Shown: positions 9,234-62,870, counted from the stretch's first letter. The stretch: 64,000 bases of DNA from Thermoanaerobaculia bacterium (GCA_035544895.1 DASZZM010000092.1:5852-69851); one strand, 5' to 3'. Made by a program: numbers and translations. Notes: a model not told the origin generated them from the sequence alone.

Positions 9234-9240
9234 GTCAGTA

Positions 9241-9345
9241 GTGCGTGAGAGGGCGGGGGCGTCCCCTTCCCCCCCGGAGGGGAGGGAAGGGGATCGAGGG
9301 GTTGCGGGGGGCGATCCAATAGATGCTTCGAGTAGTCCACCAGCG
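9241..9345 (-). repeat. REP/MITE-like hairpin repeat, copy A (inverted orientation)
   Basis: Reverse complement reads catctattggatcgccccccgcaacccctcgatccccttccctcccctccgggggggaaggggacgccccc, matching copies at 34971, 41984, 46841 and 54228. Lies between the convergent nfo and rseP ends. Confidence 0.7.
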
Positions 9346-9377
9346 CCACGTCGCAGCGCTGATTCGCCCTATGGGAT

Positions 9378-34626: not shown

Positions 34627-34946
34627 TGGATCCGGCAAAGCTTCTCACCGAGGTGCGGCGCCTGCCGGACGAACGGCACCTGCAGCTGACCTGGAGCGAC
34701 GGGCACAGCGCGGAGTACGCCTACGACTTCCTGCGCGGCTGGTGCCCGTGCGCCGCCTGCCAGGGGCACTCCGGCCTCGAGATCCTCTATCATCCGCCGC
34801 CGTCGCCGGTCACCGCGCGATCCATTCAACCCGTCGGCAACTACGCGATCTCCATCGGCTGGTCGGATGGGCATGGTACAGGCATCTACCGCTTCGAGTT
34901 CCTGCGCGAGATCTGTCCCTGCGGCCAGTGCTCAACTACTTCTTAA
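34626..34946 (+). CDS. DUF971 zinc-binding small protein
   Basis: MDPAKLLTEVRRL...WSDGHSAEYAYDFLRGWCPCAAC...GWSDGHGTGIYRFEFLREICPCGQC has two CxC/CxxC pairs typical of DUF971; ATG overlaps the GGDEF stop (TAATG). Confidence 0.7.
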   Translation: MDPAKLLTEVRRLPDERHLQLTWSDGHSAEYAYDFLRGWCPCAACQGHSGLEILYHPPPSPVTARSIQPVGNYAISIGWSDGHGTGIYRFEFLREICPCGQCSTTS

Positions 34947-34970
34947 TTGGCGCCGCCCAGTGGCCCCGAA

Positions 34971-35095
34971 GCATGAAACAGCGCTCGCTAGCTGGCGATG
35001 GCGGCCTCAGATCTATCGGATCGCCCCCCGCAACCCCTCGATCCCCTTCCCTCCCCTCCGGGGGGGAAGGGGACGCCCCCACCCCTGACGCACGA
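34971..35095 (+). repeat. REP/MITE-like hairpin repeat, copy B (full length)
   Basis: catgaaacagcgctcgctagctggcgatggcggcctcagatctatcggatcgccccccgcaacccctcgatccccttccctcccctccgggggggaaggggacgcccccacccctgacgcacg; stem CCCCTTCC/GGAAGGGG. Confidence 0.75.
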
Positions 35096-35104
35096 ACGAG
35101 ATTA

Positions 35105-35689
35105 CTGATCGGAGTCGCGCTCGCCGGCGGGGACTCGCGGCGCATGGGAAGCGACAAGATGGCTCTCGATCTGGGCGGAGAGACGCTGCCCGCCCTGGCC
35201 GCCGGGCGGCTGGCGGCGGTCTGCTCCGAAGTGGCGATCGCCGACCGCGGCCGGCGCCTGGTGCCCGGCTACCGTTCCCTGGAGGACGCTGCCGTCGAGG
35301 GACCAGCCGCCGGTATCCTGGGGGCGGCGCGAGCTTATCCAGGGAGCCTCCTGCTCGTCCTCGCCTGCGACCTGCCGCGCATCCCCCTCGCTCTCCTCGC
35401 AGAGCTGGCCGCCTCCTCGGACTGCGACTGGGCCGTGCCCCGCTGGCGCCGCGGCCTCGAGCCCCTCTGCGCCCTCTACGGCCCCGCCGCCCTGGACGCC
35501 CTCGCCCGCCTCGCCGCGCGCGGCCTGCCCGCTCCCCATCGCCTCGGCGACGCCGGCGGCCTCGCCATCCGCTACGTCGACGAGCCCGAGCTTGCCCGCC
35601 ACGGAGCGCTCGAGGACCTCTTCCTCAATGTCAACACCCCCGCCGATCTCGCCCGCTGGCGCCGGCTCGACCCTGCGGACGCCAGGTAG
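35105..35689 (+). CDS. mobA: molybdenum cofactor guanylyltransferase MobA (start codon unresolved)
   Basis: LLIGVALAGGDSRRMGSDKMAL...LLVLACDLP matches the MobA N-terminal GxxLAGGxSxRMGxDK motif. No ATG/GTG/TTG between the repeat and the motif; the only in-frame ATG lies inside the repeat (34973). Confidence 0.7.
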   Translation: MIGVALAGGDSRRMGSDKMALDLGGETLPALAAGRLAAVCSEVAIADRGRRLVPGYRSLEDAAVEGPAAGILGAARAYPGSLLLVLACDLPRIPLALLAELAASSDCDWAVPRWRRGLEPLCALYGPAALDALARLAARGLPAPHRLGDAGGLAIRYVDEPELARHGALEDLFLNVNTPADLARWRRLDPADAR

Positions 35690-36384: not shown

Positions 36385-36503
36385 CGGGGGCCGCAGGAGG
36401 TCTCCCGCAGGTTCCCCTTTCGCGGCGGCTCGCATCACAAGACAGGTTCGGGTACACACCGCAGAGCCGCCAGCGAAAGGGGAACCTGCGGGAGACCTCC
36501 TGC
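36385..36503. terminator. long near-perfect hairpin (about 40-bp arms, about 33-nt loop) between ppiA and tRNA-Leu; bidirectional terminator or structured RNA
   Basis: ccgcaggaggtctcccgcaggttcccctttcgcggcggctc ... gagccgccagcgaaaggggaacctgcgggagacctcctgcgg; the arms are reverse complements with one indel. Confidence 0.6.
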
Positions 36504-36581
36504 GGCCCACCACCGTTCACGCTCAGCGCGCGACCCACCGGCCTCAGACACCGCCAGTGAAGCTAGAATTTCTAGGAGGGA

Positions 36582-36666
<85 letters not shown>

Positions 36667-39343: not shown

Positions 39344-40357
39344 TTAGAGACATAGCGTAGCCTGGCGGCTCAGCAGATCGGCAAGCCGATGGGCGTAGCC
39401 CCACTCGTTGTCGTACCAGGCCACGACCCGCGCCAGGTCGCCGACCGTCTGCACCAGGGCAAGGTCGACGACGGCCGACCGGGGATCGCCGACGAAGTCG
39501 GACGAGACGAGCTCTTCGTCGCTCACTCCCACGAGCCCCGCGAGAGGCCCCTCCGCGGCATCGCGGAACGCTTGCCGCACCTCTTCCAACGTCACTCGCC
39601 GGTCGAGCGACGCCACCAGGTCGAGCATGGCGACTGCCGGCGTCGGCACGCGCGCCGAGAATCCCTCGATCCGGCCGGCGAGCTCCGGACAGATGAGCCC
39701 GACGGCATGCGGCGCGGTCGTGGAAGTGGGAATGATGTTGAGCGCCGCCGCGCGCGCCCGCCGCGGCTCCGGGTGCGCGAGGTCGAGCAGCCGCTGGCTC
39801 TCGGTGTAGCTGTGCACGGTGCTGGCAAGCGCTCCACGCAACCCAAACCGCTCGTGCAGCACGCGAGCCACCAGCGCCAGGCAGTTGGTCGTGCACGAGG
39901 CGTTGCTGACCACGCTGTGAAGGCGCGGGTCGTAGTCGCGCTCATTGATTCCCTGGCAGACCGTGATATCGGCTGGATCGTCCGGATCGGCATTGGCCGA
40001 GATGACGACCGAGAGGGCGCCCGCCGCCAGATGGGCCGCCGCCCGGCCGCGCCCGGTGAAGCGGCCCGTGGCCTCGATCACCACCGTGACGCCGGCTTTC
40101 CGCCAATCGATCCTCGCCGGCTCCGGCTGGTGGCTGACCGGGACGTCGCGGCCGTCGATGCGCAGCGCCTCCGCCGCGGCCGCAACCGTGGCGCGGAAAG
40201 GCCCATGCACCGTGTCACGGGCCAGGAGGCGCGCCAGCACCGGTATCTCGACGATATCGTTGATCGCCGCGAGCTCGAGCTCGGGCCGGTCCCAGGCGAT
40301 GCGCAGGAGAGCACGGCCGATGCGGCCGAAGCCGTTGATGGCGTAGCGGAGGGGCAT
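39344..40357 (-). CDS. gap: glyceraldehyde-3-phosphate dehydrogenase (type I)
   Basis: INGFGRIGRALLR...SNASCTTNCLA...WYDNEWGY; start at MPLRYAING (the listed ORF is extended). Confidence 0.9.
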   Translation of the reverse strand: MPLRYAINGFGRIGRALLRIAWDRPELELAAINDIVEIPVLARLLARDTVHGPFRATVAAAAEALRIDGRDVPVSHQPEPARIDWRKAGVTVVIEATGRFTGRGRAAAHLAAGALSVVISANADPDDPADITVCQGINERDYDPRLHSVVSNASCTTNCLALVARVLHERFGLRGALASTVHSYTESQRLLDLAHPEPRRARAAALNIIPTSTTAPHAVGLICPELAGRIEGFSARVPTPAVAMLDLVASLDRRVTLEEVRQAFRDAAEGPLAGLVGVSDEELVSSDFVGDPRSAVVDLALVQTVGDLARVVAWYDNEWGYAHRLADLLSRQATLCL

Positions 40358-40485
40358 GGTCTCGGTGGGCGAGTCGGCAAACCGCCAAGCCACTCTATCA
40401 GCGGTGTCACGGGCCGGCACTTCGGGGCACTGATAGAATGGGCTGTGGCTCGCCGAGCGCGGCCTTCTATTACAGGAGGACGACA

Positions 40486-40848
40486 ATGGAAATGGGCAAG
40501 TATTGCAAGGCCTATCTCGCCAAGGACTTGCGGCAGTATCCCGGATGGAGCGAGAACAAGGCCAACGTGCGCAAGGAAAAGAAGGAGGTCGACGGCAAGG
40601 AAATCGAGGTCGACCGCGAGCTGGACGACGAGTCCATCCTCTACATCCAGGAGAACTATGTCGTCACCGACGACATCTTCAAGGACGAGCACATCATCTT
40701 CGACAACGTGACCGACGAATGGAAGCAGTTCTGCCACGAGACTCTCCACTTCGAGATCCCGGTCTATGAGCCGATCGAGATCCCGCGGGCCGAGGAGCCT
40801 GCTCCAGCGGCCGCCGCCGACACCGAGCCGGCACCCAGCAACGGATAG
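40486..40848 (+). CDS. conserved hypothetical protein (120 aa, acidic)
   Basis: AGGAGGA RBS, ATG, coding-like composition (MEMGKYCKAYLAKDLRQYPGWSENKANVRKEKKEV...); no recognisable domain. Confidence 0.5.
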   Translation: MEMGKYCKAYLAKDLRQYPGWSENKANVRKEKKEVDGKEIEVDRELDDESILYIQENYVVTDDIFKDEHIIFDNVTDEWKQFCHETLHFEIPVYEPIEIPRAEEPAPAAAADTEPAPSNG

Positions 40849-40852
40849 AGGG

Positions 40853-40897
40853 CGCGGGGGGGAAGGGGACGCCCCCACCCCTGGCGCACGCACCTTC
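40853..40897 (+). repeat. REP/MITE-like repeat, partial copy C (3' half only)
   Basis: gcgcgggggggaaggggacgcccccacccctggcgcacgcacc matches the 3' arm of copies B/D; directly abuts the conserved TsaD N-terminus. Confidence 0.6.
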
Positions 40898-41947
40898 GTT
40901 CTTGGCATAGAGACGTCGTGTGACGATACCGCCTGCTCCGTCCTCGATGGCGAGGGGCGGGTGCTCTCTTCGGTCGTCTCGAGCCAGCTCGCCGCCCATC
41001 GTCCCTACGGCGGTGTCGTTCCCGAAATCGCCTCGCGCGAGCATCTGGCCAACTGGCTGCCGGTGAGCGGGGAGGCGTTGGCGCTCGCCGGCGTCACACC
41101 CGCGCAGTTGGAGGTGGTGGCGGCGACGCGCGGCCCCGGGCTGGTCGGCGCGCTGCTGGTCGGCCTGGCCCTGGGCAAAGCCTTCGCCTTCGCGCTCGGC
41201 CGTCCCTTTCACGCCATTCACCATCTGGAGGGCCACCTCTACTCGCCTTTCCTCAGCGCGCCGGATCAGATCGCCGTGCCGGCCGAGCCGCCGCCGGCGC
41301 GCTTTGCCGGGCTGGTGCTCTCGGGCGGACATACCAGCCTGTTCGCGGTTTCGGAAGGGCGGATCGAGACGCTCGGCGAGACACGCGACGACGCCATTGG
41401 AGAAGTCTTCGACAAGCTGGGCAAGCGGCTCGGCCTGCCCTACCCGCAAGGGCCGCGGCTCGATGAGCTGGCCGAGCGCGGCGACCAGCAATCGCGCCGC
41501 TTGCCGGTCCCCGCCTGCGGCGGCACCCTCGACTTCTCCTTCTCCGGGTTGAAGAGCCACGCCCTGGTCGAGGTCGAAAAGTTGGAGCGCCGCCTCGGCC
41601 CGCTCTGGCTGGGCGGCCCGCGGCCGGACGCGCCGCAGGAGCTTCTCGACCTGCTCGCCGCCTTTCGCGCCGCCGCGATCGCCCAGGTGTTCGACCGCCT
41701 CGACCGCCTGCTGGATCGCCAGCCGGTCGAGCTCCTGGCAGTGTCGGGCGGCGCCGCCGCCAACCGTCTCCTGCGCCGCGAGCTCCCTTCCTGGGCCGCA
41801 CGCCGCGGCCTCGCCCTCCGCCTCGTGCCCCTCGCCTACGCCGGCGACAACGCCGCCATGATCGCCCACGCCGCCCTCCTCCGCCATCACCGTGGCCTGG
41901 CGGACGATCCCTTCACCGCGGAAGCCGAGAGCCGGATTCGGATCTAG
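40895..41947 (+). CDS. tsaD: tRNA N6-adenosine threonylcarbamoyltransferase TsaD (start codon unresolved)
   Basis: FVLGIETSCDDTACSVLDGEG...HHLEGHLYSP...GLVLSGGHTSL...LSGGAAANRLLR is the Kae1/TsaD family. No canonical start between the repeat and VLGIETSCDD; the listed ORF starts at 40766, reading through the repeat and overlapping the upstream gene. Confidence 0.8.
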   Translation, partial: FVLGIETSCDDTACSVLDGEGRVLSSVVSSQLAAHRPYGGVVPEIASREHLANWLPVSGEALALAGVTPAQLEVVAATRGPGLVGALLVGLALGKAFAFALGRPFHAIHHLEGHLYSPFLSAPDQIAVPAEPPPARFAGLVLSGGHTSLFAVSEGRIETLGETRDDAIGEVFDKLGKRLGLPYPQGPRLDELAERGDQQSRRLPVPACGGTLDFSFSGLKSHALVEVEKLERRLGPLWLGGPRPDAPQELLDLLAAFRAAAIAQVFDRLDRLLDRQPVELLAVSGGAAANRLLRRELPSWAARRGLALRLVPLAYAGDNAAMIAHAALLRHHRGLADDPFTAEAESRIRI

Positions 41948-41983
41948 CTAGTCTTAGCTGCCACCGCCTGCTGCGACTCCGAG

Positions 41984-42107
41984 GCATGAACAGCGCTCGC
42001 TAACTGGCGATGGCGGCCTCCGATCTATCGGATCGCCCCCCGCAACCCCTCGATCCCCTTCCCTCCCCTCCGGGGGGGAAGGGGACGCCCCCGCCCCTGA
42101 CGTACGG
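41984..42107 (+). repeat. REP/MITE-like hairpin repeat, copy D (full length)
   Basis: catgaacagcgctcgctaactggcgatggcggcctccgatctatcggatcgccccccgcaacccctcgatccccttccctcccctccgggggggaaggggacgcccccgcccctgacgtacgg; upstream of lrp. Confidence 0.75.
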
Positions 42108-42189
42108 AGAGTTTCGTCTTAACCTGGGGCCCGGCCTGCCAGATTTCTCCTGGGCTGGGTTATGATCGGGAGGGGGAGGGAGAGAGCGC

Positions 42190-46834: not shown

Positions 46835-47206
46835 TCACGGAGCATCTATCGGATCGCCCCCCGCAACCCCTCGAGAGGCCGCGGGCCGCCGGCAGAACGC
46901 CGGATCGAGCTCGCCGCTCGGCCTCGCCGCCGATTCGTCCGGGCCGATGGCGACGATCGCGACCATGCCGGCGCCGGCCGAGCGGCGCCGGCGCAGCAGG
47001 TCGAAGCAGGCGTTGCGGGTGACTCGTAGCAGCCATCCTGTCAGCATCTCGGGGTCGAGGCTTTCGCCGTGGCGCCACAAGCGCAGCAGCACCTCCTGGG
47101 TCACGTCCTCGGCCTCCTCGCGGCTGGCGAGGAGGTAGCGGGCAAAGGTGTAGACCCTGCGCTGGTGCCGCCTGACCGCCGCCTCGAAGTCCATCGGCAC
47201 CTCCAT
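46835..47206 (-). pseudogene. ECF sigma-70 factor, region 2 only (truncated; region 4 missing)
   Basis: MEVPMDFEAAVRRHQRRVYTFARYLLASREEAEDVTQEVLLRLWRH...LTGWLLRVTRNACFDLLRRRR is a canonical sigma-2 domain. The ORF then runs about 45 aa with no sigma-4 HTH and terminates in the repeat translation (…RGVAGGDPIDAP). Confidence 0.55.
46841..46875 (+). repeat. REP/MITE-like repeat, partial copy E (5' half)
   Basis: agcatctatcggatcgccccccgcaacccctcgag matches the 5' arm of the family; embedded in the 3' end of the sigma-factor ORF. Confidence 0.6.
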
Positions 47207-52928: not shown

Positions 52929-54203
52929 ATGCGGGATCTCGTGGACCTTGCCCGGCGGATGGCCGCCACGGCGCTCGCCGCCGTCGATCCGGAGCGGCTT
53001 GTCCGCGAGCCGCTGGCGCGGCGCGGCGAGCGCTTTCCGGCGGTCCTGGCGGTGGGCAAGGCGGCCCCGGCGATGGCGCGCGGCGCCCTCCCCTTCCTCG
53101 AGCCCGCGGCGCGGCGCTTGCTGATCCGGCCGCACACCAGCCCCGGCCTGCTCGACCCCGCCTGGGAGCAGCTCTCCGGCGGCCATCCGCTGCCCGACCG
53201 TCAGAGCCTTGCGGCCGGGGCGCGCCTCCTCGGCTGGCTGGCCGAGCTGCCGCCGCCGCGGCCGCTTCTGGCGCTGATCTCCGGCGGCGCGTCGGCCTGC
53301 CTGGAAGCGCCCGCCGCCGGCCTCACTCTCCACGACCTGGCGGCGACCCAGGAAGCGCTCCTGGGCTCCGGGCTGGCAATCGATCGCGTCAACGCCGTGC
53401 GCAAGCACCTCTCGGCGCTCAAGGGGGGCGGCGCCCTGCGCGCCACGCGTACCCGAGTCGTCGCGCTCCTGCTCTCCGACGTGCCCGGCGACGATCCGGC
53501 CACGATTGCCTCCGGACCCTTCGCCGCGGATCCCACCACCTTCGCCGAGGCGCTGGCTTCAGTCAGCACGATCGGCGGCCTCCCCGGGGTGCCCGAGGCC
53601 GTGCGCCGGCACCTGGCCCGCGGCGCTCGCGGCGAGCTGCCGGAGACGCTCGAGCCGGGAGATCCGGCGCTCGAGCGTGTCGAGAGCCTGCTGATCGGCA
53701 GCGTTGCCACGGCCATGGCCGCCGCGGTGGCCGAGGCGCGGCGGCGCGGCATGACGGTCGGGGAAGGGGAGCTCACCGGCGAGGCGGCGGAGGCAGCGTG
53801 CCTGATGGTGGCCAAGGGACGGGCCATGCCGGGTCCTCGGGTGGCGCTGGTCTTGGGCGGCGAGACCACCGTGACGCTCGCCGGTGCCGCGGGCAGCGGC
53901 GGCCGCAATCAGGAGCTGGCCCTGGCCGCGGCACGAGAGCTGGCGGGCAGCGGCGACGAGGTCGCCGTGGCGCTTGCCTCGGACGGCGTGGACGGTCCGA
54001 CCCGCTTTGCCGGCGGCCTGGTTCACGGCGGGACCTGGGAGGCCATCCGGCGGGCCGGGCTCGATCCGGCTAGTTCCCTCGCCCGGCACGACGCGCAGCG
54101 GGCACTTGCCGCCGTCCCCGGGGCCCTCCTCGAGACCGGCCCCACCGGGACCAACGTCAGCGATTTAGCCATTTATTTGAGGATGGCCCCCAGCACAGGC
54201 TAG
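52929..54203 (+). CDS. glycerate kinase / hydroxypyruvate reductase family (MOFRL)
   Basis: …AVGKAAPAMARGA…LISGGASACLE…KHLSALKGGG…LLSDVPGDDP…GGETTV…GGRNQELALAAA… is the MOFRL/GckA family. Start at MRDLVDLARR; the listed ORF is extended upstream into the ABC gene. Confidence 0.75.
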   Translation: MRDLVDLARRMAATALAAVDPERLVREPLARRGERFPAVLAVGKAAPAMARGALPFLEPAARRLLIRPHTSPGLLDPAWEQLSGGHPLPDRQSLAAGARLLGWLAELPPPRPLLALISGGASACLEAPAAGLTLHDLAATQEALLGSGLAIDRVNAVRKHLSALKGGGALRATRTRVVALLLSDVPGDDPATIASGPFAADPTTFAEALASVSTIGGLPGVPEAVRRHLARGARGELPETLEPGDPALERVESLLIGSVATAMAAAVAEARRRGMTVGEGELTGEAAEAACLMVAKGRAMPGPRVALVLGGETTVTLAGAAGSGGRNQELALAAARELAGSGDEVAVALASDGVDGPTRFAGGLVHGGTWEAIRRAGLDPASSLARHDAQRALAAVPGALLETGPTGTNVSDLAIYLRMAPSTG

Positions 54204-54227
54204 CGCTGCGATGTGGCGGTAGATGAC

Positions 54228-54352
54228 TACTCAATGCATCTATCGGATCGCCCCCCGCAACCCCCGCAGATCCCCTTCCCGGTTTTCCAGAGCCGCCGGG
54301 TCCCTGCCCGGCGGTAGCCGGAGGGGAAGGGGACGCCCTCTCCCCTGGCGCG
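54228..54352 (+). repeat. REP/MITE-like repeat, copy F (variant with internal insertion)
   Basis: atgcatctatcggatcgccccccgcaaccc..gatccccttccc…ggaggggaaggggacgccctctcccctggcgcgc shares both arms with the other copies. Confidence 0.65.
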
Positions 54353-54470
54353 CTAATCGTTTCGCTCTTGTTTTAGGCCCGGCTGGTTGGCTGGGGCTGG
54401 ACTAGCCCGCCCTCGCCACAGATGCGGTAGCATCGGAGGGCCAGCCCGCCCACAGGACAAGGAGGCAGTG

Positions 54471-54752: not shown

Positions 54753-55404
54753 CCGCCCGGCGGCCGCTCTGGCCCTGCTTTTCTGCCCGCTGGCCGGCTG
54801 GCTCGCCGGCGCGCTGGCCGCGGGCTGCCGCTCGACGGACGAGCGCCCCCAGCCCGCGATGGCCGATGCCTTGACCGATGGGCCGATGCGCTGGCTGCTG
54901 CTGCCCGAGGAGCGCCGGCAAGCGCGGCGGTTGCACAACTCCGCCGAGGCCGTCGAGTTCATCGGGAATTTCTGGCGGCGCCGCAACCCTGACCCGCGGT
55001 CGCCGCAGAACGACTTCGCGCGCGTGTTCTACGAGCGGGTCGAAAGCGCGGACCGCCTGTACGGCGAAGACGGCAGCCGCGGCAGCCTGACCGACCGCGG
55101 GAGGGCGTTGATCGTGCTCGGTCCGCCGCCGGAGCTGCGCTATGGCCAGAGGCGCCTCCCTTCCTGGGAGCCCGGCCAGCCGAGCTCCCGGCCTGCCATC
55201 CACACCCGCAACGTCGGAGTCGAGACGTGGAAGTACGAGTGGTCCGATCTGCCGCCGAAACTGGTCGCCCTGCTCGCCGCCGAGGCGCCGGGCCAGGAGG
55301 TGGTCCTGGTCTTCCTCGTCGACACCCACCACACCCGTCTCATCGAAGGCGGCCATCTCCTCGACCTTGCCGCCCGCGCCGCCGTCCACGACCCGATCCG
55401 CTAG
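54700..55404 (+). CDS. GWxTD-domain lipoprotein
   Basis: Lipobox LAGALAAGC; FWRRRNPDPRSPQNDFARVFYERVESADRLYG…SLTDRGRALIVLGPPPELRYG…ETWKYEW fits the GWxTD family. Confidence 0.65.
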   Translation: MARSTRPPSRPATAAFTSRPAAALALLFCPLAGWLAGALAAGCRSTDERPQPAMADALTDGPMRWLLLPEERRQARRLHNSAEAVEFIGNFWRRRNPDPRSPQNDFARVFYERVESADRLYGEDGSRGSLTDRGRALIVLGPPPELRYGQRRLPSWEPGQPSSRPAIHTRNVGVETWKYEWSDLPPKLVALLAAEAPGQEVVLVFLVDTHHTRLIEGGHLLDLAARAAVHDPIR

Positions 55405-55554
55405 TGTCCCGTCTGTGAAGGGCAGATGGAGACGCTGATGATAACTCAATATCATAGAGTAAGTTGCGAGATTCAAGGTGAAGACGCAGTAGACCCTGGG
55501 GAAGCGCCGGGGAAGCACGCGGAAGGCAATGAAAGCGCAGTGTGGAGCATGCGA
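55405..55554 (+). repeat. left arm of about 150-bp inverted repeat pair (IR-L)
   Basis: tgtcccgtctgtgaagggcagatggagacgctgatgataactcaatatcatagagtaagttgcgagattcaaggtgaagacgcagtagaccctggggaagcgccggggaagcacgcgg…gtggagcatgcgagcgtagctgag is about 95% identical to the reverse complement of 62660..62810; contains an IS66-like GTAAG terminus motif. Confidence 0.8.
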
Positions 55555-55570
55555 GCGTAGCTGAGCCCGA

Positions 55571-55888
55571 TTGGCCGCCATCGCCGGGCAAGTGACACGC
55601 TATGTCGAGGACGGCATCCTCGACATCGACAACAACCGCGCCGAACGAGCACTGCGGCGCGTGGCGGTGGGTCGCAAGAACTGGATGTTCGCCGGCAGCG
55701 ATGAGGGTGGGCGCCGAGCGGCGATCATCTACAGCCTCGTCGCCAGCTGCGCTCTGCTGAAGGTGAATCCGTTTGCCTACCTTCGCAACGTCCTGGAGCG
55801 CTTCCCCTCCTGCTGCCCTGCCGACCTCAGCCAGCTCACGCCGAAGGTCTGGCAAGAGAGCCACACCAACCCTGCCACGACCGTCTGA
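55571..55888 (+). mobile_element. IS66-family transposase (TnpC) C-terminal remnant, about 105 aa, 5' about 80% deleted
   Basis: VEDGILDIDNNRAERALRRVAVGRKNWMFAGSDEGGRRAAIIYSLVASCALLKVNPFAYLRNVLERF…LTPKVW matches the conserved C-terminus of IS66 TnpC (IDNNxAERALRxxAxGRKNWLFAGS…YSLxxTCKLNGVNPxxYL). Confidence 0.75.
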
Positions 55889-56137
55889 GCCGGCTGCTCG
55901 ACCCGGCTCCTCCGTTCGCCGGTCCGCCAGCAGGTGGTCAGCGGACCACCCTGGTTACTTGTGGTTGGCCGGACGGTTACCGAAGTCTCACAAACGGGTA
56001 AGCTTCGGGTAAACACTCGGGATCTCATCGAAGGGTGGTGTAGGGTAGGCGTGCGGGTGAGCCCGGCCAGCACGCGAGGCGCCGGGGTTGCCAGTGCGCG
56101 CGTTACCTTTTACGCACCCCGAAGGCCGCTTTCTAGA

Positions 56138-56836
56138 TCAAATCAGTTGTTTTATAGCTCCCGCTAATATTTGTATGCCGCGTGTTACGTAAGGCGCCAC
56201 AAAGACGCTGTGTAGCGCCAAGACAGGAAAGGCAATTAGCACGAATGCAGCGAATGTCCGAAGCAGACTGATCCCCTGAACATCCGCCAACCATCTCGCG
56301 ACAATGGGCGCGCCAAATATTACTATAATAGCAAATGTTGCGAAGCCGAAGATCATGGCCCATGCAGGGACAGCTGCCGTGGGGGCATGGCTTGTGTCTA
56401 TGAAATCGGTTGGCGAAAGGTACCAAAGCATTGGAAAAGAGCAAATTAGCATCAACGGTCCAGAGAAACTTACCCAGATGCAATATGCCACGAATGTTCG
56501 ACCGATGGGGGCGGTCCCGCGAAACGCTCTCAACGCCAGATGAACAACCAGGACGAGCAGGAGCTGGCCATACAAGAACTGAAGCAGGAAGGAGATTTTG
56601 TCCAATTCCAGTTTCTTGTGTAAAATTATTGGTATATAAATAACAAATGATATCGCAACGCTATAGAGAAAAATCTTCAGCGCTTTAGAGACACAGAAGA
56701 GTTCTAACCTCCGCTTTGCAAACTGGCCCCGAAGCCGTACGATTTCTACTACGGTCGCGTAATACATTCCAAATCCCTCGAGAATATTCGTAGGACTTAT
56801 CGCATCCGCGAAAGGATCCATATCCGTTTCTTTCAT
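56138..56836 (-). CDS. hypothetical polytopic membrane protein in AT-rich (about 48% GC) segment
   Basis: MKETDMDPFADAISPTNILEGFGMYYATVVEIV… with five or six hydrophobic helices; local GC about 20 points below the surroundings; GGGGAG RBS. Confidence 0.5.
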   Translation of the reverse strand: MKETDMDPFADAISPTNILEGFGMYYATVVEIVRLRGQFAKRRLELFCVSKALKIFLYSVAISFVIYIPIILHKKLELDKISFLLQFLYGQLLLVLVVHLALRAFRGTAPIGRTFVAYCIWVSFSGPLMLICSFPMLWYLSPTDFIDTSHAPTAAVPAWAMIFGFATFAIIVIFGAPIVARWLADVQGISLLRTFAAFVLIAFPVLALHSVFVAPYVTRGIQILAGAIKQLI

Positions 56837-58698
56837 TCTGACTCCCCGTCCCTCGCGGGATCTTGCGTTGCTTTCACGCCACCTAAGAAGCAAAGATGTC
56901 GTGCTCGCTTGTCGCGAGCTCGGGCCGGGTCTCCCAAGACTCGAGTAGAACATCACGGGCAATCTTGCGCTCCGTCGCTACGTCGGAAGGAGAAGCAATG
57001 AAGACTTTGAAAACCGTTGCGCCGTAGGGCACGCTCAACTCTCCTATCTTCGGAGTATGTCTCGCCGTCGAACGCACTCGAGACGATGGCGTGACTTCTG
57101 GGCCTGCCCGCAAAGTGCGCCCGGTCTTTCCTATTGTCAACCTCCAAGGTAGAGGATAGTGCCCGCTATGTGGTTAAGACAAATAGCAATTTGCGTATGG
57201 ACGAAGAAGCAGCCGGGATCCGAGTTTGGAGGATCTCGGAATCTTGCCTGGCTGGCTGGTCGGCCTTCTCCTATTTTCCCAGAGATGGCTGTTCCTCGAT
57301 CGGTACCGGGTCGGGGTTACGGGTACCGCCATAAACGTCAGTGCCCGCGAGCGAAGCGAGCGTGGCACAACAACCCGGCGGCGATCCGGCCTCGACCCTT
57401 ACGAGAAGCGGGGTGCAGGGGGGAAGCCCCCCTGCTCCGATTGGCCCGGCCGGGGCGCTGACCGTTGCAGGAGCGAAGAAGGGTGCGGGGTGAGGGGGGG
57501 AGCGCCGGGCTGCCGGGACGGGCCTTGGAAATGGACGCCTACGGCCAGCTGGTGCGGCCGGTGCTCGGGATCGACGGCGAGTTCGCCGCACCAGCACCGG
57601 CGGCGACTTACACCGCTTTCGTGCCTCTGGCCAGCCTACCAACGCCGGGTGGCCGGGCGTCAAGGGTGAACCGCGCTGCGCGCGGCGGCTGCGCCGCCCT
57701 TGACCCCCGGCCACTCGGCGTGGTGCAAGTAGACTGTGGCGAGGGGGGGAGAAGCCGGCTCAGGAAGGAAGATCACCTTCCCCCGCCCACCCACCCTCTC
57801 TCCTAATCCCGACTGCGAGGGGGCCGGCGCGGTCCCCGCGGCGGCCCCCGCCACCGTCCGTAGGGAGTCCACACCGAGCGGCGGCCGAGCCGCTGCCGCG
57901 ATCACCAGCCGGCACGCCGCCGCACTCTGCCGGCACCGCCATCTGTACCGAGCCGGCACACCTGCGCAGAGCGCTCGCAGTCTGCCGGCAGGCTGCCGCA
58001 GAAACCGGGATGCAAGCGGCAAGGCAATCCCGCCTGGTCGACGGCATAAAACCCGGTGCTCGCGTGCGGGCGGTCACCAGGCCGAACTGGACGTGGGCGC
58101 CCCGGCCTTCTGCTGGGGCGACCTTCGCCGCGTTCGTGCCTCCTGTTCGTTCGTACGGTGAGGTTTCGTGAAGCTCACGACCCCCATCACCCGTGAAACC
58201 GCACCAGGATGCGCGCTCGGACGCCGTCCCCTCCCCGATTCCGACCTCCGCCGCCTCTACGGCCGACAATCCCTCGCGCTCGGATCTTTCCCGATTCATG
58301 GCGAGCGAGAAAATGGGGTGCCCCGTGAAGGCGAGATTCCACGCCTCCACGTCAGGAGAATGAGAATGGCGCCGGCAGCTCGAGTCCGAGACGCTCTCTT
58401 GCAGGGTGAGTAGCAAGCCGGGTTCCTGTGCTACGCACAGGAACCGCTCGCTTCGCTCGCGATAGCTTGGCGGCTCACTTCGTTCGCCAACAACGGTTCC
58501 TCCGACGGGGCTGGCGCCCCGCCTCCGGTCGCTTCAAGTGACGCGTCCGCTGGCCTCCTCGTGCTCTCTCTAGTCGCGGCACAGCGCCGCCCGGGCGGTG
58601 TTAAGGTAGAGACTCGGCCGATACGGGAATCACGCACGTTCGAGCCTGCCAGATTTCCGCAAGCTGCGAATCGAGACCTGTCCGCAAGGACCGAGGAC

Positions 58699-61600
58699 AT
58701 GCCGCCGCTCCTCTTGCTCCACCTCTCCGACCTTCATTTCGGTCCTCACAGTCGCTTCGTTAGCGAGAGCCCCGAGCGGCTGGGCGAGAGCTTCCACCGC
58801 GCGTTGGTCGCCGCCCAGGACAAGATCGGGCTTGCCGATCACAGAATCGAGTTGGTGTTGGTCACGGGCGATGTCGCTGAGGCGGGGAAGCGCTCCGAAT
58901 TTGAGAACGCCCGGCGCTTCCTCGCGGCCCTCGCCGGTGGACTCGGCCTCGTCGCCGGCCGATTCGTCTTCGTTCCCGGTAACCACGACATCAACTGGGC
59001 CTCCTGCAAGCGGGTCGAGGCCGAACTTGAGGAGCGGGAGGAACTCGCCCCCGAGCTTCTGCGGCGCCGCCTTGACGAGGTCAAGCTCGACATCTACTTC
59101 GAGTTCCTCAGATCCTTCTATGGCGTCGCGGACCTCGCGGAAGTAGCCGCGCCGCTGGGCCGGGGCGCGAATCTTTTCCGCTTCCCCCAACTTCGACTTG
59201 CCGTGGCCGCGCTCAACTCCTGCGAGAAGGAATCTCATCGCCCGGCGGACCACGCGGGCCTGGTGAGCCGGGAACAGGCCGAGGCTGCGCTTTCGGCCTT
59301 GAGGGGTGCCGAGGTCGCCGCGTGGCTCAAGCTCCTCGCGGTCCACCACAATCCGGTTGTCACGACGCCCGGCAACCTCGCAGCTTGGCGACGATTCCTC
59401 GAGGTGAAAGGCGGGTTCGACGCCGAACTTCTCGCTCGCTATGAGAGCGACGCCCTCGGTTTTGATGGGCGAGGGCTCCGAGCGGTAGCGGCGGATGCCA
59501 GAGTCCAGCTCGTCCTCCACGGTCACCATCACGCCCAGGACAAGCAGACCTGGGACTGGAGCGGACCTGGGCACACGCACGTGCTCTCAGCGGGTAGTCT
59601 GGGTCTCCAGCCCGAGGTGCTCCCCAAAGACGAACCTGCCTCCGCCCGCCTGATCGTGCTTGACATTGAGCGGCAGGAGATCCGCGCCCATTCGGTCGTC
59701 TACATCGCCTGGCACCGCCCGGCAGGCGCGGTCGAGTGGGGCGCCTTCGCTCCAGACCCGGCCGGCTGGATGGTCCAGCGCCTCGATCTGCCAGAGGGAT
59801 ATGCAACCGCCGCAACCGCGGCGGCCCACGCGCCGCCTCCTGCCCTCGATACCGACTTCCTTCGCACCTTCCGCCAGCGCCTCCGCGACACCTATAGCCG
59901 TTGGGACATCGGGTCGCTCGGCGCGCTCCGGCCAGGTGGCGTTCAGGCCGGCGACGCCCCGCTCGATGACATGTATCTCGAGCTTCGCTTCACCTCCTGG
60001 CTCGATCCGATAAACACCTTTGACAATCGACCTCTGCGCCCGGACGACCTTCTCGGCCGGAACCGACCGCTTGTGCTTCGGGGCGCCGGCGGCTCCGGCA
60101 AGACCACCTGGGCACGTTTCACCTTCAGCCAGCTGGCGCTCGACGACCGAGCCCTGCCGCTGATGCTCGTTCTGCGCGATGTCGCGCGGCGGTGGCAGCT
60201 CCCGGAGAGCGCGGGCGAGGAACGCTCGATTGACGCAGCGCTCGACGCCTGGATCGGCAGCCAGATGGGGATCGGCTGGCGCGGCCGCCTTGCGAGCCTT
60301 CTCAAGGCCGGGGACGGCCCGCGGCCCATCCTTCTGGTGGACGGTTGGGACGAACTCGGCCCGCTCGGCAGCGAACTGCGGGGCAAGCTTCTCGGTTTCA
60401 TCCGTGAGCACCCGCGCGTTCTCGCTGTCGTCACCAGCCGGCCCTACGGGCAGGACCCGCCTTCGCATAGCGAGGGCTTCGAGGTCGTCGACCTCCAACC
60501 GCTCTCGGACAGCGACATCAAGCAGCTGACCCGCAAGTTCTTCCGCCGCTTCGCGAGCGGCGGCGAGGCCAGCGTAGGCGACGAGTGCTGGCGCTTCCTT
60601 GAGGCGCTCGAACACAACCGCGACGCTCAAGATCTTGCGCGGACGCCGCTGCTGCTCACCATGCTGCTCCTCGTCGGGCACTCTCAACCGCTTCCCGACA
60701 AGCGGCACCTGCTCTACGAGAAGTGCGTCGACGCGCTCCTCCACGCTAGGCCGGAGCAGAAGACTGCTGAGGGCGCCCTCGCAGGTAGCCACCTCTGGAC
60801 TCCGCCGGACCTCGACCGCCGCCGGCGGTGGGTCGCCACCCTCGCATACAACGTTCAAAGCGCCGGGTACAGGGAGACTTCCCGTGGTCCCATCGTCCGT
60901 TCCTGGGAGGAGATGAGGACACTGCTACCCGAAGAGTGCGCGCGTGATCGCCGCGACGGCTTCCTCGCCTGGCTCGTCGAGACCGCGGGCCTCCTCTCCG
61001 ACCGCGCCGATGGTACTCTTGCCTTCTCCCACTTAAGCTTTCAGGAGTACCTCGCCGCTTACCATCTGGAAACCACCGCCGCAGATGCCGGCGAGCGGCG
61101 CGCGGCCTTCGGTCAAAGGATCCCGGATTTCCAGTGGTGGGAAACGCTCCGCCTGCTCGGCGCGCAGATCGAGACGCGAAACCCAGCCTTTCTCGATGCC
61201 GTGCTTGACGGCCTTGTTCAGGCGCCGGCCTCCGAGTACGCGCTCGCCTTCGCAGGCACTGTCTTCGCCGACGGCCTCGGTCCTGTCCTCCTTTTCCAGG
61301 AATGGCTGTCGCTCTGGTTGAAGGCTCTCGCGCGCGCGTTCCCACCGGGGGTCGGCTACTGCTGGGGAGCCTGGCGCTCTTCACGACAGGAGAAGCGTAA
61401 GGGTCTTCTGCGGGAGGCGCTCTCCACACAAGCCTCAGGACAGACCTGGCTCGGTTGGGTGCGATTCGAGGAATTCGACCCGGCGTCGTACACTGTCCTC
61501 TCCAGGCCCACGGGCAGGCTCGCACGCCTCCTGATCGATGGGCTCAAGGATGGACCGCTGACTCAGGAGGGCATCGCCGCCGGGCGTGTGCTGGCCGGCT

Positions 61601-62571
61601 TCGAGCCTTTGTGGCCAACCTGGGAGGAGGTTGGGCACCTTCAAGCGTGGCCTTCGCGGCGGCGGCGGTTCGGCCTTCAGCTGCAGGCCTTTCTCGCCGC
61701 GGGAGTTCCAACCAGTTCCCTCGTTAAGCTTGCGCGTGCGATTGCACCGCAGGCCTTGGACGCCGCGAGTCGCGGCTTGGCTCGAGATTTGGCGCGCAAC
61801 TTGGCTCACGAGTTGGCTCTGGACCTGGCGCCTCACTCCGGGGCTGACAAAGTTGGCGAGGCAATTGGCTACTTGGCGTGCGACTGGGCTTCGCACTTGG
61901 CTTCGCACTTTACTTCGGACCTGGAGACCCGCCAGTTGCCTTTCCACTGGCCTCCCCGATTCGGCCAGATCTGGGTTTTCAGCCAGCTTTTCCCGGGCTT
62001 TGCTTCCTTTATGGCTCGCAACTTGGTTCGGGAAGATCCTGACAAACCGTCTTTCCTCTGGGCCGGCGCCTGGGCTCGCGGCTTGGCCTCCAAGCTTGCT
62101 CTCGATCCGATTCCGGACTTCACCCTCAGCTGGGTCCTCTCCTCTGGATTTGCCGCTGGCCGTGCATTCCTCGCCGCCCAGCGAGATTTCAGTCATCCCG
62201 AAACGTTATCAGCGTTATCGCGCCTCCTTTCTGCGGCCTGCTGCCTCTCGTTCCGCCCGGAGAGTCAAAGCGAGCTCCCAGTCTCAGTCGGCCCTCACTT
62301 AGATTGTCTTTGGCCCGCGCTAGCGCGGCACCTCGCGCGGCGCAGCACTGCCCAAGATCGCGAGCTCCTTGTCGATCTCGCTCGCGATCCCGCAAAACGC
62401 GAGCCGCCGCTGCAATGGGGTCTCCGCTTCATCGTCCGCGGTGATCTGCTTCTAGACGACGGTTCGTTCCTGGCCCTCGACGAGCTAACTGACCAGGCCG
62501 GCATCGAGCGCCTTCCTCTGCTTGACGAGATGGAGCCCGAGCTGGACGTGGCCTGGGAAAACGGCTCTTGA
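58699..62571 (+). CDS. STAND NTPase: N-terminal calcineurin-like metallophosphoesterase plus NACHT P-loop NTPase plus C-terminal helical repeat region (1290 aa)
   Basis: MPP motifs LHLSDLHFG (DxH), LVTGDVAEAG (GD), FVPGNHD (GNHD), LAVHHNP (H), VLHGHHHAQ (GHxH). NACHT: Walker A LRGAGGSGKTTWA, Walker B ILLVDGWDELG, VVTSRP (NACHT TSR motif). C-terminus has LARDLARNLAHELALDLA-type repeats. Start at ATG 58699 (MPPLLLLHLSDL). Confidence 0.8.
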   Translation: MPPLLLLHLSDLHFGPHSRFVSESPERLGESFHRALVAAQDKIGLADHRIELVLVTGDVAEAGKRSEFENARRFLAALAGGLGLVAGRFVFVPGNHDINWASCKRVEAELEEREELAPELLRRRLDEVKLDIYFEFLRSFYGVADLAEVAAPLGRGANLFRFPQLRLAVAALNSCEKESHRPADHAGLVSREQAEAALSALRGAEVAAWLKLLAVHHNPVVTTPGNLAAWRRFLEVKGGFDAELLARYESDALGFDGRGLRAVAADARVQLVLHGHHHAQDKQTWDWSGPGHTHVLSAGSLGLQPEVLPKDEPASARLIVLDIERQEIRAHSVVYIAWHRPAGAVEWGAFAPDPAGWMVQRLDLPEGYATAATAAAHAPPPALDTDFLRTFRQRLRDTYSRWDIGSLGALRPGGVQAGDAPLDDMYLELRFTSWLDPINTFDNRPLRPDDLLGRNRPLVLRGAGGSGKTTWARFTFSQLALDDRALPLMLVLRDVARRWQLPESAGEERSIDAALDAWIGSQMGIGWRGRLASLLKAGDGPRPILLVDGWDELGPLGSELRGKLLGFIREHPRVLAVVTSRPYGQDPPSHSEGFEVVDLQPLSDSDIKQLTRKFFRRFASGGEASVGDECWRFLEALEHNRDAQDLARTPLLLTMLLLVGHSQPLPDKRHLLYEKCVDALLHARPEQKTAEGALAGSHLWTPPDLDRRRRWVATLAYNVQSAGYRETSRGPIVRSWEEMRTLLPEECARDRRDGFLAWLVETAGLLSDRADGTLAFSHLSFQEYLAAYHLETTAADAGERRAAFGQRIPDFQWWETLRLLGAQIETRNPAFLDAVLDGLVQAPASEYALAFAGTVFADGLGPVLLFQEWLSLWLKALARAFPPGVGYCWGAWRSSRQEKRKGLLREALSTQASGQTWLGWVRFEEFDPASYTVLSRPTGRLARLLIDGLKDGPLTQEGIAAGRVLAGFEPLWPTWEEVGHLQAWPSRRRRFGLQLQAFLAAGVPTSSLVKLARAIAPQALDAASRGLARDLARNLAHELALDLAPHSGADKVGEAIGYLACDWASHLASHFTSDLETRQLPFHWPPRFGQIWVFSQLFPGFASFMARNLVREDPDKPSFLWAGAWARGLASKLALDPIPDFTLSWVLSSGFAAGRAFLAAQRDFSHPETLSALSRLLSAACCLSFRPESQSELPVSVGPHLDCLWPALARHLARRSTAQDRELLVDLARDPAKREPPLQWGLRFIVRGDLLLDDGSFLALDELTDQAGIERLPLLDEMEPELDVAWENGS

Positions 62572-62659
62572 GGAGAGGGAGCATTTTGAGGCCGTGGTGA
62601 TGGCGCCGCGGGCGGTTGCCCTGTCCGCAGCTGTCTCTCGAAAGGAGCCCCGCATCGAC

Positions 62660-62810
62660 CTCAGCTACGCTCGCATGCTCCACACAGCGCCTTCATTGTC
62701 TCCCGCGTGCTTCCCCGGCGCTTCCCCAGGGTCTAGTGCGTCTTCACCTTGAATCTCGCAACTTACTCTATGATATGGAGTTATGATCAAGGTCTCCTTC
62801 AGCCCTTCAC
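62660..62810 (-). repeat. right arm of about 150-bp inverted repeat pair (IR-R)
   Basis: Reverse complement of 62660..62810 aligns with 55405..55554, including tgtcccgtctgtgaagggc…ataactc(a/c)atatcatagagtaagttgcgagattcaaggtgaagacgca…ggaagcacgcgg…gtggagcatgcgagcgtagctgag. Confidence 0.8.
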
Positions 62811-62870
62811 AGACGGGACACCAGTACCTCGCTCTACCCCTCGCCCACGTCGCCAGCGAGGCTCGAGTGT

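Follow-up and report, generated by a model that had tools for sequence, protein, structure and literature searches.

The tsaD locus

This analysis concerns the 5' end of tsaD, an essential tRNA-modification gene encoding the tRNA t6A37 threonylcarbamoyltransferase, in a stretch of 64,000 nt from a Thermoanaerobaculia bacterium (the window; GC content 68%), and an interspersed repeat whose 3' portion lies at that end. The gene upstream of tsaD (40486..40848, +; HVT18926.1) encodes a hypothetical protein of 120 aa, has a strong Shine-Dalgarno (SD) site and ends with the stop codon TAG at 40846-48, 7 nt 5' of the G run of the repeat. The repeat portion (40855..40904, +), which comprises the right hairpin arm and the tail, was recognised by the repeat family search and by comparison with canonical tails elsewhere; the run of seven G residues in its arm (G7; 40856..40862, +) is SD-like and conserved in all three haplotypes compared below. 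The conserved core of tsaD, from FVLGIETSCDD to the stop codon (40895..41947, +), was delimited by NCBIfam TIGR03723. It is preceded by an in-frame leader (40766..40894, +) consisting of ATG 40766 and 42 further codons, of which the first 83 nt are shared with the upstream gene and the last 15 codons are derived from the repeat. Across the junction the sequence reads ...AAC GGA TAG / agggcgc GGGGGGGAAGGGGACGCCCCCACCCCTGGCGCACGCACC TTC GTT CTT GGC ATA GAG ACG TCG TGT GAC GAT, and the translation in the tsaD frame is ...GGEGDAPTPGART-FVLGIETSCDD. The open reading frame (ORF) of 393 aa from ATG 40766 matches HVT18927.1 (TsaD) exactly, with the start chosen by NCBI; JGI gene calls shorten the protein to 328 aa, whereas NCBI extends it through the repeat to 393 aa.

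The deduced protein scored 324.6 bits against TIGR03723 (cutoff 296.1), covering model positions 1-312 of 314, and matched Pfam PF00814 with E=5e-71. The N-terminal motif (V/I)LGIETSCD(D/E) is present as FVLGIETSCDD, which aligns to MRVLGIETSCDET of solved TsaD structures. Model position 1 of TIGR03723 aligns to the V of FVLG, and the difference from relatives at the N-terminus is confined to the residues before VLG. No canonical start codon was found 2-5 codons before (V/I)LGIETS, and no ATG, GTG or TTG occurs in the tsaD frame between 40766 and 40895. The sequence is thus as a previous reading, made from the sequence alone (the sequence-only reading), had described it: tsaD lacks a conventional start at the N-terminus defined by homology, and the nearest in-frame ATG, at 40766, lies 129 nt upstream (40895-40766) and overlaps the upstream gene by 83 nt. 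MRVLGIETS is preceded in the PDB chain 13fn_D by about 27 additional residues that look like a tag and contain an IEGR site, which suggests by analogy that N-terminal extensions may be compatible with TsaD folding.

The upstream gene adjoins tsaD also in the outgroup (contig L106), and its protein gave no match in a Pfam search. The protein is conserved directly 5' of tsaD in the clade, its C-terminal tail being variable and of low complexity, and a (GCC)n run in its gene has 2, 3 or 4 units depending on the haplotype. A promoter/terminator scan of positions 40300-41000 gave no match.

Repeat DNA at the 5' end of tsaD

The copy of the repeat at tsaD follows the canonical tail through TTCGTTCTT, save for a 3-nt gap. 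This TTCGTTCTT (40895-40903), the last 9-10 nt of the repeat portion, is repeat tail that now serves as the codons F-V-L of TsaD, in place of ancestral L-V-L. Since canonical tails are found elsewhere and the match runs through TTCGTTCTT, the F-V-L codons of tsaD are repeat DNA. GTT, CTT and ATA are rare codons in this genome (3.3%, 7% and 1.3%, respectively), which is consistent with a repeat origin. The sequence-only reading had let a repeat copy end two codons before the TsaD motif; the 3' part of the repeat does precede the core, but the tail reaches further and covers F-V-L.

The ancestral state can be read from the relatives. Those at 70-88% identity all begin M-x-(x)-P-L-V-L-G-I-E-T-S-C-D-D, and in the syntenic locus of the outgroup the same upstream gene is followed by a spacer of ~100 nt and by ATG CGT CAC CCG CTG GTG CTC GGC ATC GAG. 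From the MxxPLVLG starts of the relatives, the ATG and spacer of the outgroup and the TIGR03723 alignment, we concluded that, as far as comparison of sequences can tell, a repeat fragment has supplanted the spacer and start codon of tsaD along with about 5 codons, and that T-F-V-L now stands in the place of P-L-V-L.

An 8-nt direct repeat, GGATAGAG, flanks the repeat fragment. Its left copy (40843..40850, +) includes the upstream stop codon, and its right copy, G(C)ATAGAG at 40905-40912, consists of the G-I-E codons of tsaD. The two copies are identical (8/8) in the haplotype L113 (9882-9889 and around 9944). The 8-nt repeat is possibly a rearrangement footprint, and it would account for the conserved rare ATA codon, which is ATC in the outgroup. 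A simple target-site duplication was rejected, because the reconstructed empty site gives ...QQRIETS, which is not a TsaD N-terminus. At 4070-4095 of L106, the outgroup tsaD has TACACT exactly 6 nt 5' of its ATG and no SD; this spacing is the geometry of a -10 box for leaderless mRNA, and the same DNA also encodes the 'AYTVA' found in over-extended gene calls of several relatives.

Variation and selection among haplotypes

Three haplotypes were compared, namely the window, L113 and L118, the last two on JGI metagenome contigs from three samples (L113, L114 and L118). The source samples are JGI 3300062721, 3300063339 and 3300086543, and SRR12277192/3. L113 and L114 are identical in sequence at the junction, are 97% identical to the window at the nucleotide level and are taken as one haplotype here. 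These close relatives were found by exact-protein look-ups, and a contig scan with a window-specific 25-mer gave only 4 unrelated loci. A second protein search, with partial TsaD N-termini, revealed no further close haplotypes, its matches all being <=88% identical and having canonical MxxPLVLG starts. The junction is also present in the more divergent L118 and, in part, in the contig-end fragments L116 and L120.

Compared with L113, tsaD has a proportion of synonymous differences (pS) of 0.064 and of nonsynonymous differences (pN) of 0.010 (ratio 0.15); compared with L118, pS is 0.14 and pN 0.032 (ratio 0.23). No frameshifts or stops were found in tsaD in the three haplotypes. Judged by these substitution patterns (dN/dS 0.15-0.23), the gene is clearly under purifying selection and functional.

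At the junction the codons are ACC TTC GTT CTT GGC ATA GAG ACG in the window, ACC TTT GTT CTA GGG ATA GAG ACC in L113 and ACC TTC GTC CTG GGC ATA GAG ACC in L118. Five substitution events fall within the F, V, L and G codons among the three haplotypes, and all five are third-position and synonymous, for which the chance would be about (1/3)^5 = 0.004 if the stretch were non-coding. These exclusively synonymous changes indicate that translation includes F-V-L-G. The 15 repeat-derived codons upstream have 5 nonsynonymous and 2 synonymous changes (R/P/P, G/G/D, P/P/S, G/G/R, R/R/S), and the repeat part at tsaD drifts from GAAGGGGACGCCCCC to GAAAGGGACGCCTCC in L118; given this free change, the stretch would be either untranslated or an unconstrained leader. 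In addition, the density of synonymous changes in the first 8 codons of tsaD (40895-40918, versus L113 and L118) is ~6 times that in the rest of the gene, and the tail in the window is like the CTTAG variant of the repeat while that in L113 is like the CTAG variant. Together the tail variants and the synonymous density hint that other copies of the repeat have acted as donors in gene conversion, with selection on the protein as a filter.

Candidate start codons of tsaD

ATG 40766, the sole canonical in-frame start for tsaD in the window, overlaps the Tyr94 codon TAT of the upstream gene. In L118 and in the outgroup Tyr94 is TAC, which gives ACG in the tsaD frame, and L118 has no ATG, GTG or TTG in the entire open tsaD frame. 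Since the junction is common to the three haplotypes and L118 branches first, ATG 40766 is younger than the junction; non-canonical initiation would therefore have sufficed for a time, and would still do so in L118. The earlier statement that some non-obvious initiation must operate is hence a fair one for the lineage. No adaptive origin can be claimed for the TAT that created ATG 40766, as the upstream gene has drifted to TAT at most of its Tyr codons.

All three haplotypes share the codons ACG 40715, ACG 40736, AGG 40793, CTG 40799 and ACG 40841. Among the non-canonical candidates, ACG 40841 has an 8-nt overlap with the upstream stop (ACGGATAG), a coupling-like geometry; CTG 40799 and the ACG at the 40766 position itself are further candidates. 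The predicted peptides in the tsaD frame are MSRSRSR... (from ATG 40766), GGEGDAPTPGAR and TFVLGIETSCDDTACSVLDGEGR (with (f)Met or Thr first). In each of the three haplotypes the G7 run has a pairing energy of -10 kcal/mol with the anti-SD; a local hairpin is predicted to mask the run in part, and no near-cognate codon was found in frame 5-9 nt 3' of an SD-like site, the G7 run included. In E. coli, near-cognate codons reach 0.02-3% of the initiation obtained with AUG, and other codons 0.01-1% (bioRxiv 10.1101/063800); by analogy, such low initiation may be enough for a low-abundance enzyme.

Several other routes were rejected. ATA 40907, which had been put forward as a candidate start, is unlikely, since F, V, L and G, whose codons directly precede it, have changed 5 times and only synonymously. 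GTT and CTT, proposed along with it, have double mismatches to AUG, and a CTG at the Leu codon occurs in L118 only. Read-through of TAG 40846 would be in the wrong frame, which stops at 40921, and for a start in another frame followed by slippage at G7 there is no canonical start in any frame in 40770-40900.

The repeat family

The repeat is ~170 nt in length, interspersed and non-coding, and 6 copies or fragments are present in the 64 kb, a density of ~1 copy per 10 kb; they are intergenic and comprise full and partial copies. A 23-mer from the repeat has 5 matches in the window versus 0.01 expected. Full copies, which span about 160-180 nt, lie between the DUF971 stop and the mobA core (34947..35107, +), between the tsaD stop and an lrp-like gene (41948..42125, +), and between two convergent genes, both stop codons of which touch the element (9234..9377, -). 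A long-loop variant with a nested hairpin within the central loop is found at 54195..54375 (+), and a fragment at 46838..46874 (+) corresponds to the central part just 5' of the main hairpin. The core of the repeat is a 14-bp G/C hairpin (GATCCCCTTCCC...GGGAAGGGGAC), whose loop is short, or long and nested; RNA folding of the repeat and of the junction gave unremarkable z-scores, -0.2 to -1.4. A search of Rfam at the gathering threshold matched tRNA-Leu alone, and the repeat corresponded to none of its families. When one genome per species was scanned, the repeat was detected in many metagenome-assembled genomes (MAGs) of Thermoanaerobaculia and other Acidobacteriota, and the canonical tail in these is ...CCCCTGGCGCACGGACCAATTTCGTTCT(T)AG, likewise written ...CTGGCGCACGGACCAATTTCGTTCT(T)AG or ...GCGCACGGACCAATTTCGTTCT(T)AG. 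A full repeat can be read through in the GGEGDAP frame alone, its two other frames containing stops; in the half copy at tsaD all three frames are open.

The head (TCTTAG-TTGGCGCCGCC...) and the tail (...GGACCAATTTCGTTCTTAG) of the repeat share TCTTAG as a direct, not an inverted, repeat, and the inverted similarity of the ends, TTGG...GCGCC, is weak and was judged by eye. TTAG, TTAA or CTAG stands at both ends of several copies. Among 35 copies examined with crude ORF calls, for about 12 the tail falls on a convergent gene's stop codon, heads lie on the stops of co-oriented genes, and the start of co-oriented genes 3' of the repeat is at a variable distance. In two other Thermoanaerobaculia/Acidobacteriota MAGs (L002, 2550-2900; L073, 2780-2900), the 3' ends of neighbouring genes run into the element. 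In L002 an RluD-like ORF crosses the whole element in the GGEGDAP frame, and such read-through implies that the element often supplies C-terminal residues and stop codons. In another Acidobacteriota MAG (L084, 1660-1870) the repeat core is in tandem with a 69-nt period, in at least 3 units.

Rearrangements at the mobA site

The copy upstream of mobA reads GGEGDAPTPDARTR in the same frame as the tsaD junction, as had been noted before. ATG 34973, inside this full copy, is the mobA start of NCBI (HVT18920.1, 238 aa). The mobA core (35108..35689, +) begins at the ATC that encodes the I of IGVALAGG and ends with the stop codon, and position 3 of NCBIfam TIGR02665 aligns to its residue 2. In L115 and L119 the site is empty, the DUF971 stop TAG being followed by 13 nt and by ATG ACA CCG ATC/GTC GGA GTC (MTPIGVALAGG). 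In the window a forward element stands in place of ~31 nt, including mobA's own ATG. In the 97% identical L113 the element core is reversed 5' of mobA and is accompanied by an inverted copy of the spacer and ATGACAC, which places an inversion breakpoint inside codon 3 of mobA. The empty, forward and inverted alleles indicate that the start of mobA was destroyed by recent rearrangement at the element, which took two different forms, and was not supplied by the element. A reconstructed L113 intermediate is compatible with insertion at the CTAG of the DUF971 stop, and the window copy corresponds to 31 nt replaced without duplication.

The DUF971-mobA spacer thus has three alleles (L113 3990-4225, L115 4740-4790 and window 34930-35115); in the inverted one the element core took mobA's ATG away, and the element head rewrites the C-terminus of DUF971 and gives it a new stop (SPA*, SPGT*, STTS*). 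In the outgroup, at 80% identity (L108 4120-4830, -), mobA has the same neighbours, DUF971 and PPIase, but the opposite orientation, which implies that the mobA segment was inverted between lineages.

Among genomes at least 97% identical, repeat differences occur at four sites within 12 kb: the mobA site; the tsaD-lrp spacer, where L113 has just the head module and the window a complete copy; the PGK-GAPDH spacer, where a copy is limited to L113 and L114; and the 3' side of the PPIase gene in L119. No repeat copy was found in the syntenic 21 kb of the outgroup.

Proposed explanation and alternatives

We propose that a non-coding repeat of ~170 nt, abundant and currently rearranging in this lineage and usually landing on or beside stop codons, would formerly have had a copy between the upstream gene and tsaD. 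A secondary rearrangement, in the order of events that we infer, would have kept only the 3' arm and tail of that copy and, in the same event, deleted the tsaD spacer, the start and the first ~5 codons (ancestral MxxPLVL-GIETS). The gene may have survived for two reasons: the tail TTCGTTCTT by chance reads F-V-L in frame, which would restore the first beta-strand, and no stop interrupts the frame on its way upstream, across the repeat fragment and into the 3' end of the gene before it. TsaD would consequently carry a non-conserved N-terminal leader, and we infer that here it most likely begins at ATG 40766, giving 43 extra residues. This ATG would have arisen later by a synonymous TAC>TAT change in the overlapped gene; earlier, and still in L118, low-level near-cognate initiation or re-initiation after the upstream stop would have operated. 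On balance, and with some reserve, we regard this account as a whole (a repeat replaced the start, F-V-L was co-opted, and the leader most likely comes from ATG 40766) as probable from the sequence comparisons. Some points weigh against it. L118 has neither ATG 40766 nor any other canonical in-frame start, so this ATG is not required for viability there and may not be the real start here; the base call of L118 at that position comes from one 1.5-kb contig only; and ATG 40766 sits out of frame inside a well-translated gene, without an SD (-3 kcal/mol). In favour of the account, genes without an SD are common here, for example GAPDH and DUF971. Only tentatively do we suggest the further claim that the essential tsaD persisted over a synonymous divergence of at least 0.14 without a canonical start, through near-cognate initiation or re-initiation aided by the repeat-donated G run, until one sub-lineage was 'repaired' by a synonymous change making an ATG.

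The same absence of a canonical start in L118, together with the constraint on its tsaD, raises the doubtful but serious alternative that the start is non-canonical in all haplotypes, whether by termination-reinitiation at ACG 40841, at CTG 40799 or at a codon set by G7, and that ATG 40766 is irrelevant. The five near-cognate or related codons kept in all three haplotypes, the pairing of G7 with the anti-SD and the initiation rates in E. coli speak for it; yet no in-frame near-cognate lies 5-9 nt past the G run, CTG 40799 is just 1 nt from the SD-like GAGGAG, the overlapping upstream gene itself holds the candidate codons fixed, so that their conservation says little, and a true ATG, where present, should outcompete them. 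That the 3' end of the repeat might be an evolved translation-initiation module capturing gene starts repeatedly, as the sequence-only reading had suggested from the recurrence at tsaD and mobA, has been largely refuted and is now very unlikely. Both genes do adjoin the tail in one and the same frame and lack a start close by, and the repeat arm does contain an SD-like G run. But mobA abuts the opposite end of the element in L113 and has its own ATG in L115 and L119, about 12 of 35 tails are on convergent stops with downstream starts at variable distance, no near-cognate codon is suitably placed past the G run, and the repeat part at tsaD decays neutrally. The recurrence itself carries little meaning, the frame match being forced for mobA and having a 1/3 chance for tsaD. 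The other possibility then raised, that the repeat tolerates read-through, agrees with the data, since the frame is open through the fragment, the repeat codons are neutral and NCBI annotates read-through for both tsaD and mobA.

Nor is it likely that this copy of tsaD is unexpressed, being a recent pseudogene or backed up by another tsaD in the genome. Such a view would fit the lack of a canonical start in the right place, the gene calls cut to 328 aa and the limitation of the view to 64-79 kb of the genome. It is opposed by the dN/dS of 0.15-0.23 over a pS of 0.14 since the junction arose, by the intact frame in three haplotypes, by the score above the equivalog cutoff and by the fact that tsaD is normally single-copy in bacteria. 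A fusion of TsaD to the upstream 120-aa protein by +1 ribosomal frameshifting, within the 135-nt stretch open in both frames, is highly improbable. Although the tsaD frame is +1 relative to that of its upstream neighbour, with no stop from 40712 onward in any of the three haplotypes, and the upstream gene has a strong SD and an ATG, there is no recognisable conserved slippery site (CCC-A 40832 is CCG-A in L118), 61 open codons are expected by chance with a frequency of ~27% at this GC content, and the two genes are separate in the outgroup. Finally, contigs often end in the repeat (L115, L116 and L120), as they would if the junction were an assembly or sequencing artefact, but an artefact is scarcely credible, as the junction is present in an NCBI MAG contig and three JGI contigs from different samples, with haplotype-specific substitutions and conserved synteny.

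Comparison with known systems

The repeat resembles MITE (miniature inverted-repeat transposable element), REP, ERIC and Correia-type repeats in being short and non-coding, in its strong central hairpin and in its many dispersed intergenic copies, full and partial. As in those families, presence or absence and orientation vary among near-identical genomes, with filled and empty sites (at mobA, L115 and L119 show the empty state, and the window and L113 the filled one), and the flanks are like TTAG/TAG. It differs from them in having no clear terminal inverted repeats and no Rfam family, in the lack of an identified partner transposase (no search aimed at a RAYT gene was made), and in its strong preference for stop codons, whereby it gives its neighbours new stops. 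The central 14-bp hairpin is REP-like in general look, as in REP/REPIN elements, and the GTAG motif was not noticed by eye. As far as this search shows, the repeat family is undescribed.

Rickettsia palindromic elements (RPEs) and other MITEs are known to form in-frame fusions with host ORFs (reviewed in PMC10969869). The tsaD junction is like them in that a short palindrome-bearing repeat lies in a reading frame and is read through while the host gene is functional. RPEs, however, insert whole and within genes, leaving the host start codon intact, whereas at tsaD only a ~50-nt fragment is present, at the extreme 5' end, and start and first codons have been replaced. Moreover, the tail of the repeat here stands in for conserved residues, and the repeat-encoded peptide is not conserved as in RPE-like cases, the repeat codons upstream of T-F-V-L-G evolving neutrally. 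The replacement of the start and first codons of an essential gene by a repeat fragment that is co-opted as coding sequence is new in comparison with these cases.

With respect to initiation, infC has a natural AUU start, and tsaD resembles such genes in being functional without a canonical start at the expected N-terminus, one haplotype having none at all. In the known non-AUG/GUG/UUG cases the near-cognate codon is defined and conserved, stands at the proper distance from an SD and often has an autoregulatory role, whereas no such pair of codon and SD was found at the N-terminus of tsaD, where the situation would have arisen by accidental rearrangement. ATG 40766 also recalls the starts of overlapping genes, lying 83 nt within the preceding gene in the +1 frame; typical coupled overlaps are of 1-4 nt, less often 8 nt, so that 83 nt without an SD is atypical, and this ATG is not conserved in L118.

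Other features of the window

Two inverted repeats of 171 nt, 92% identical and 7.1 kb apart (55401-55571 and 62654-62824), enclose 56000-62571. Between them are a patch of low GC content (0.50-0.53) and an ORF of 1336 aa with Metallophos and NACHT domains (STAND/NLR-like; 58561-62571), and the region may be a mobile defence island. A perfect inverted repeat of 36 nt with a 49-nt spacer (36388-36423 / 36473-36508) is located between the PPIase gene and tRNA-Leu(GAG) (36582-36666, -).

Implications

The locus is a natural experiment in the tolerance of an essential gene to damage in its start region. A mobile repeat would have cost tsaD its promoter-proximal region together with its start codon and first codons, and repeat DNA would have been co-opted twice, as the coding sequence of a conserved beta-strand and as a junk leader. 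If the apparent lack of any canonical start in one haplotype is real, tsaD would be a natural case of sustained non-canonical initiation in an essential gene and of the repair of a start codon via an overlapping frame. In annotation, such genes are either cut short, as in the JGI calls (328 aa), or carried on across repeat DNA, as in those of NCBI (393 aa). The repeat family itself is a hotspot of structural variation in Thermoanaerobaculia populations.

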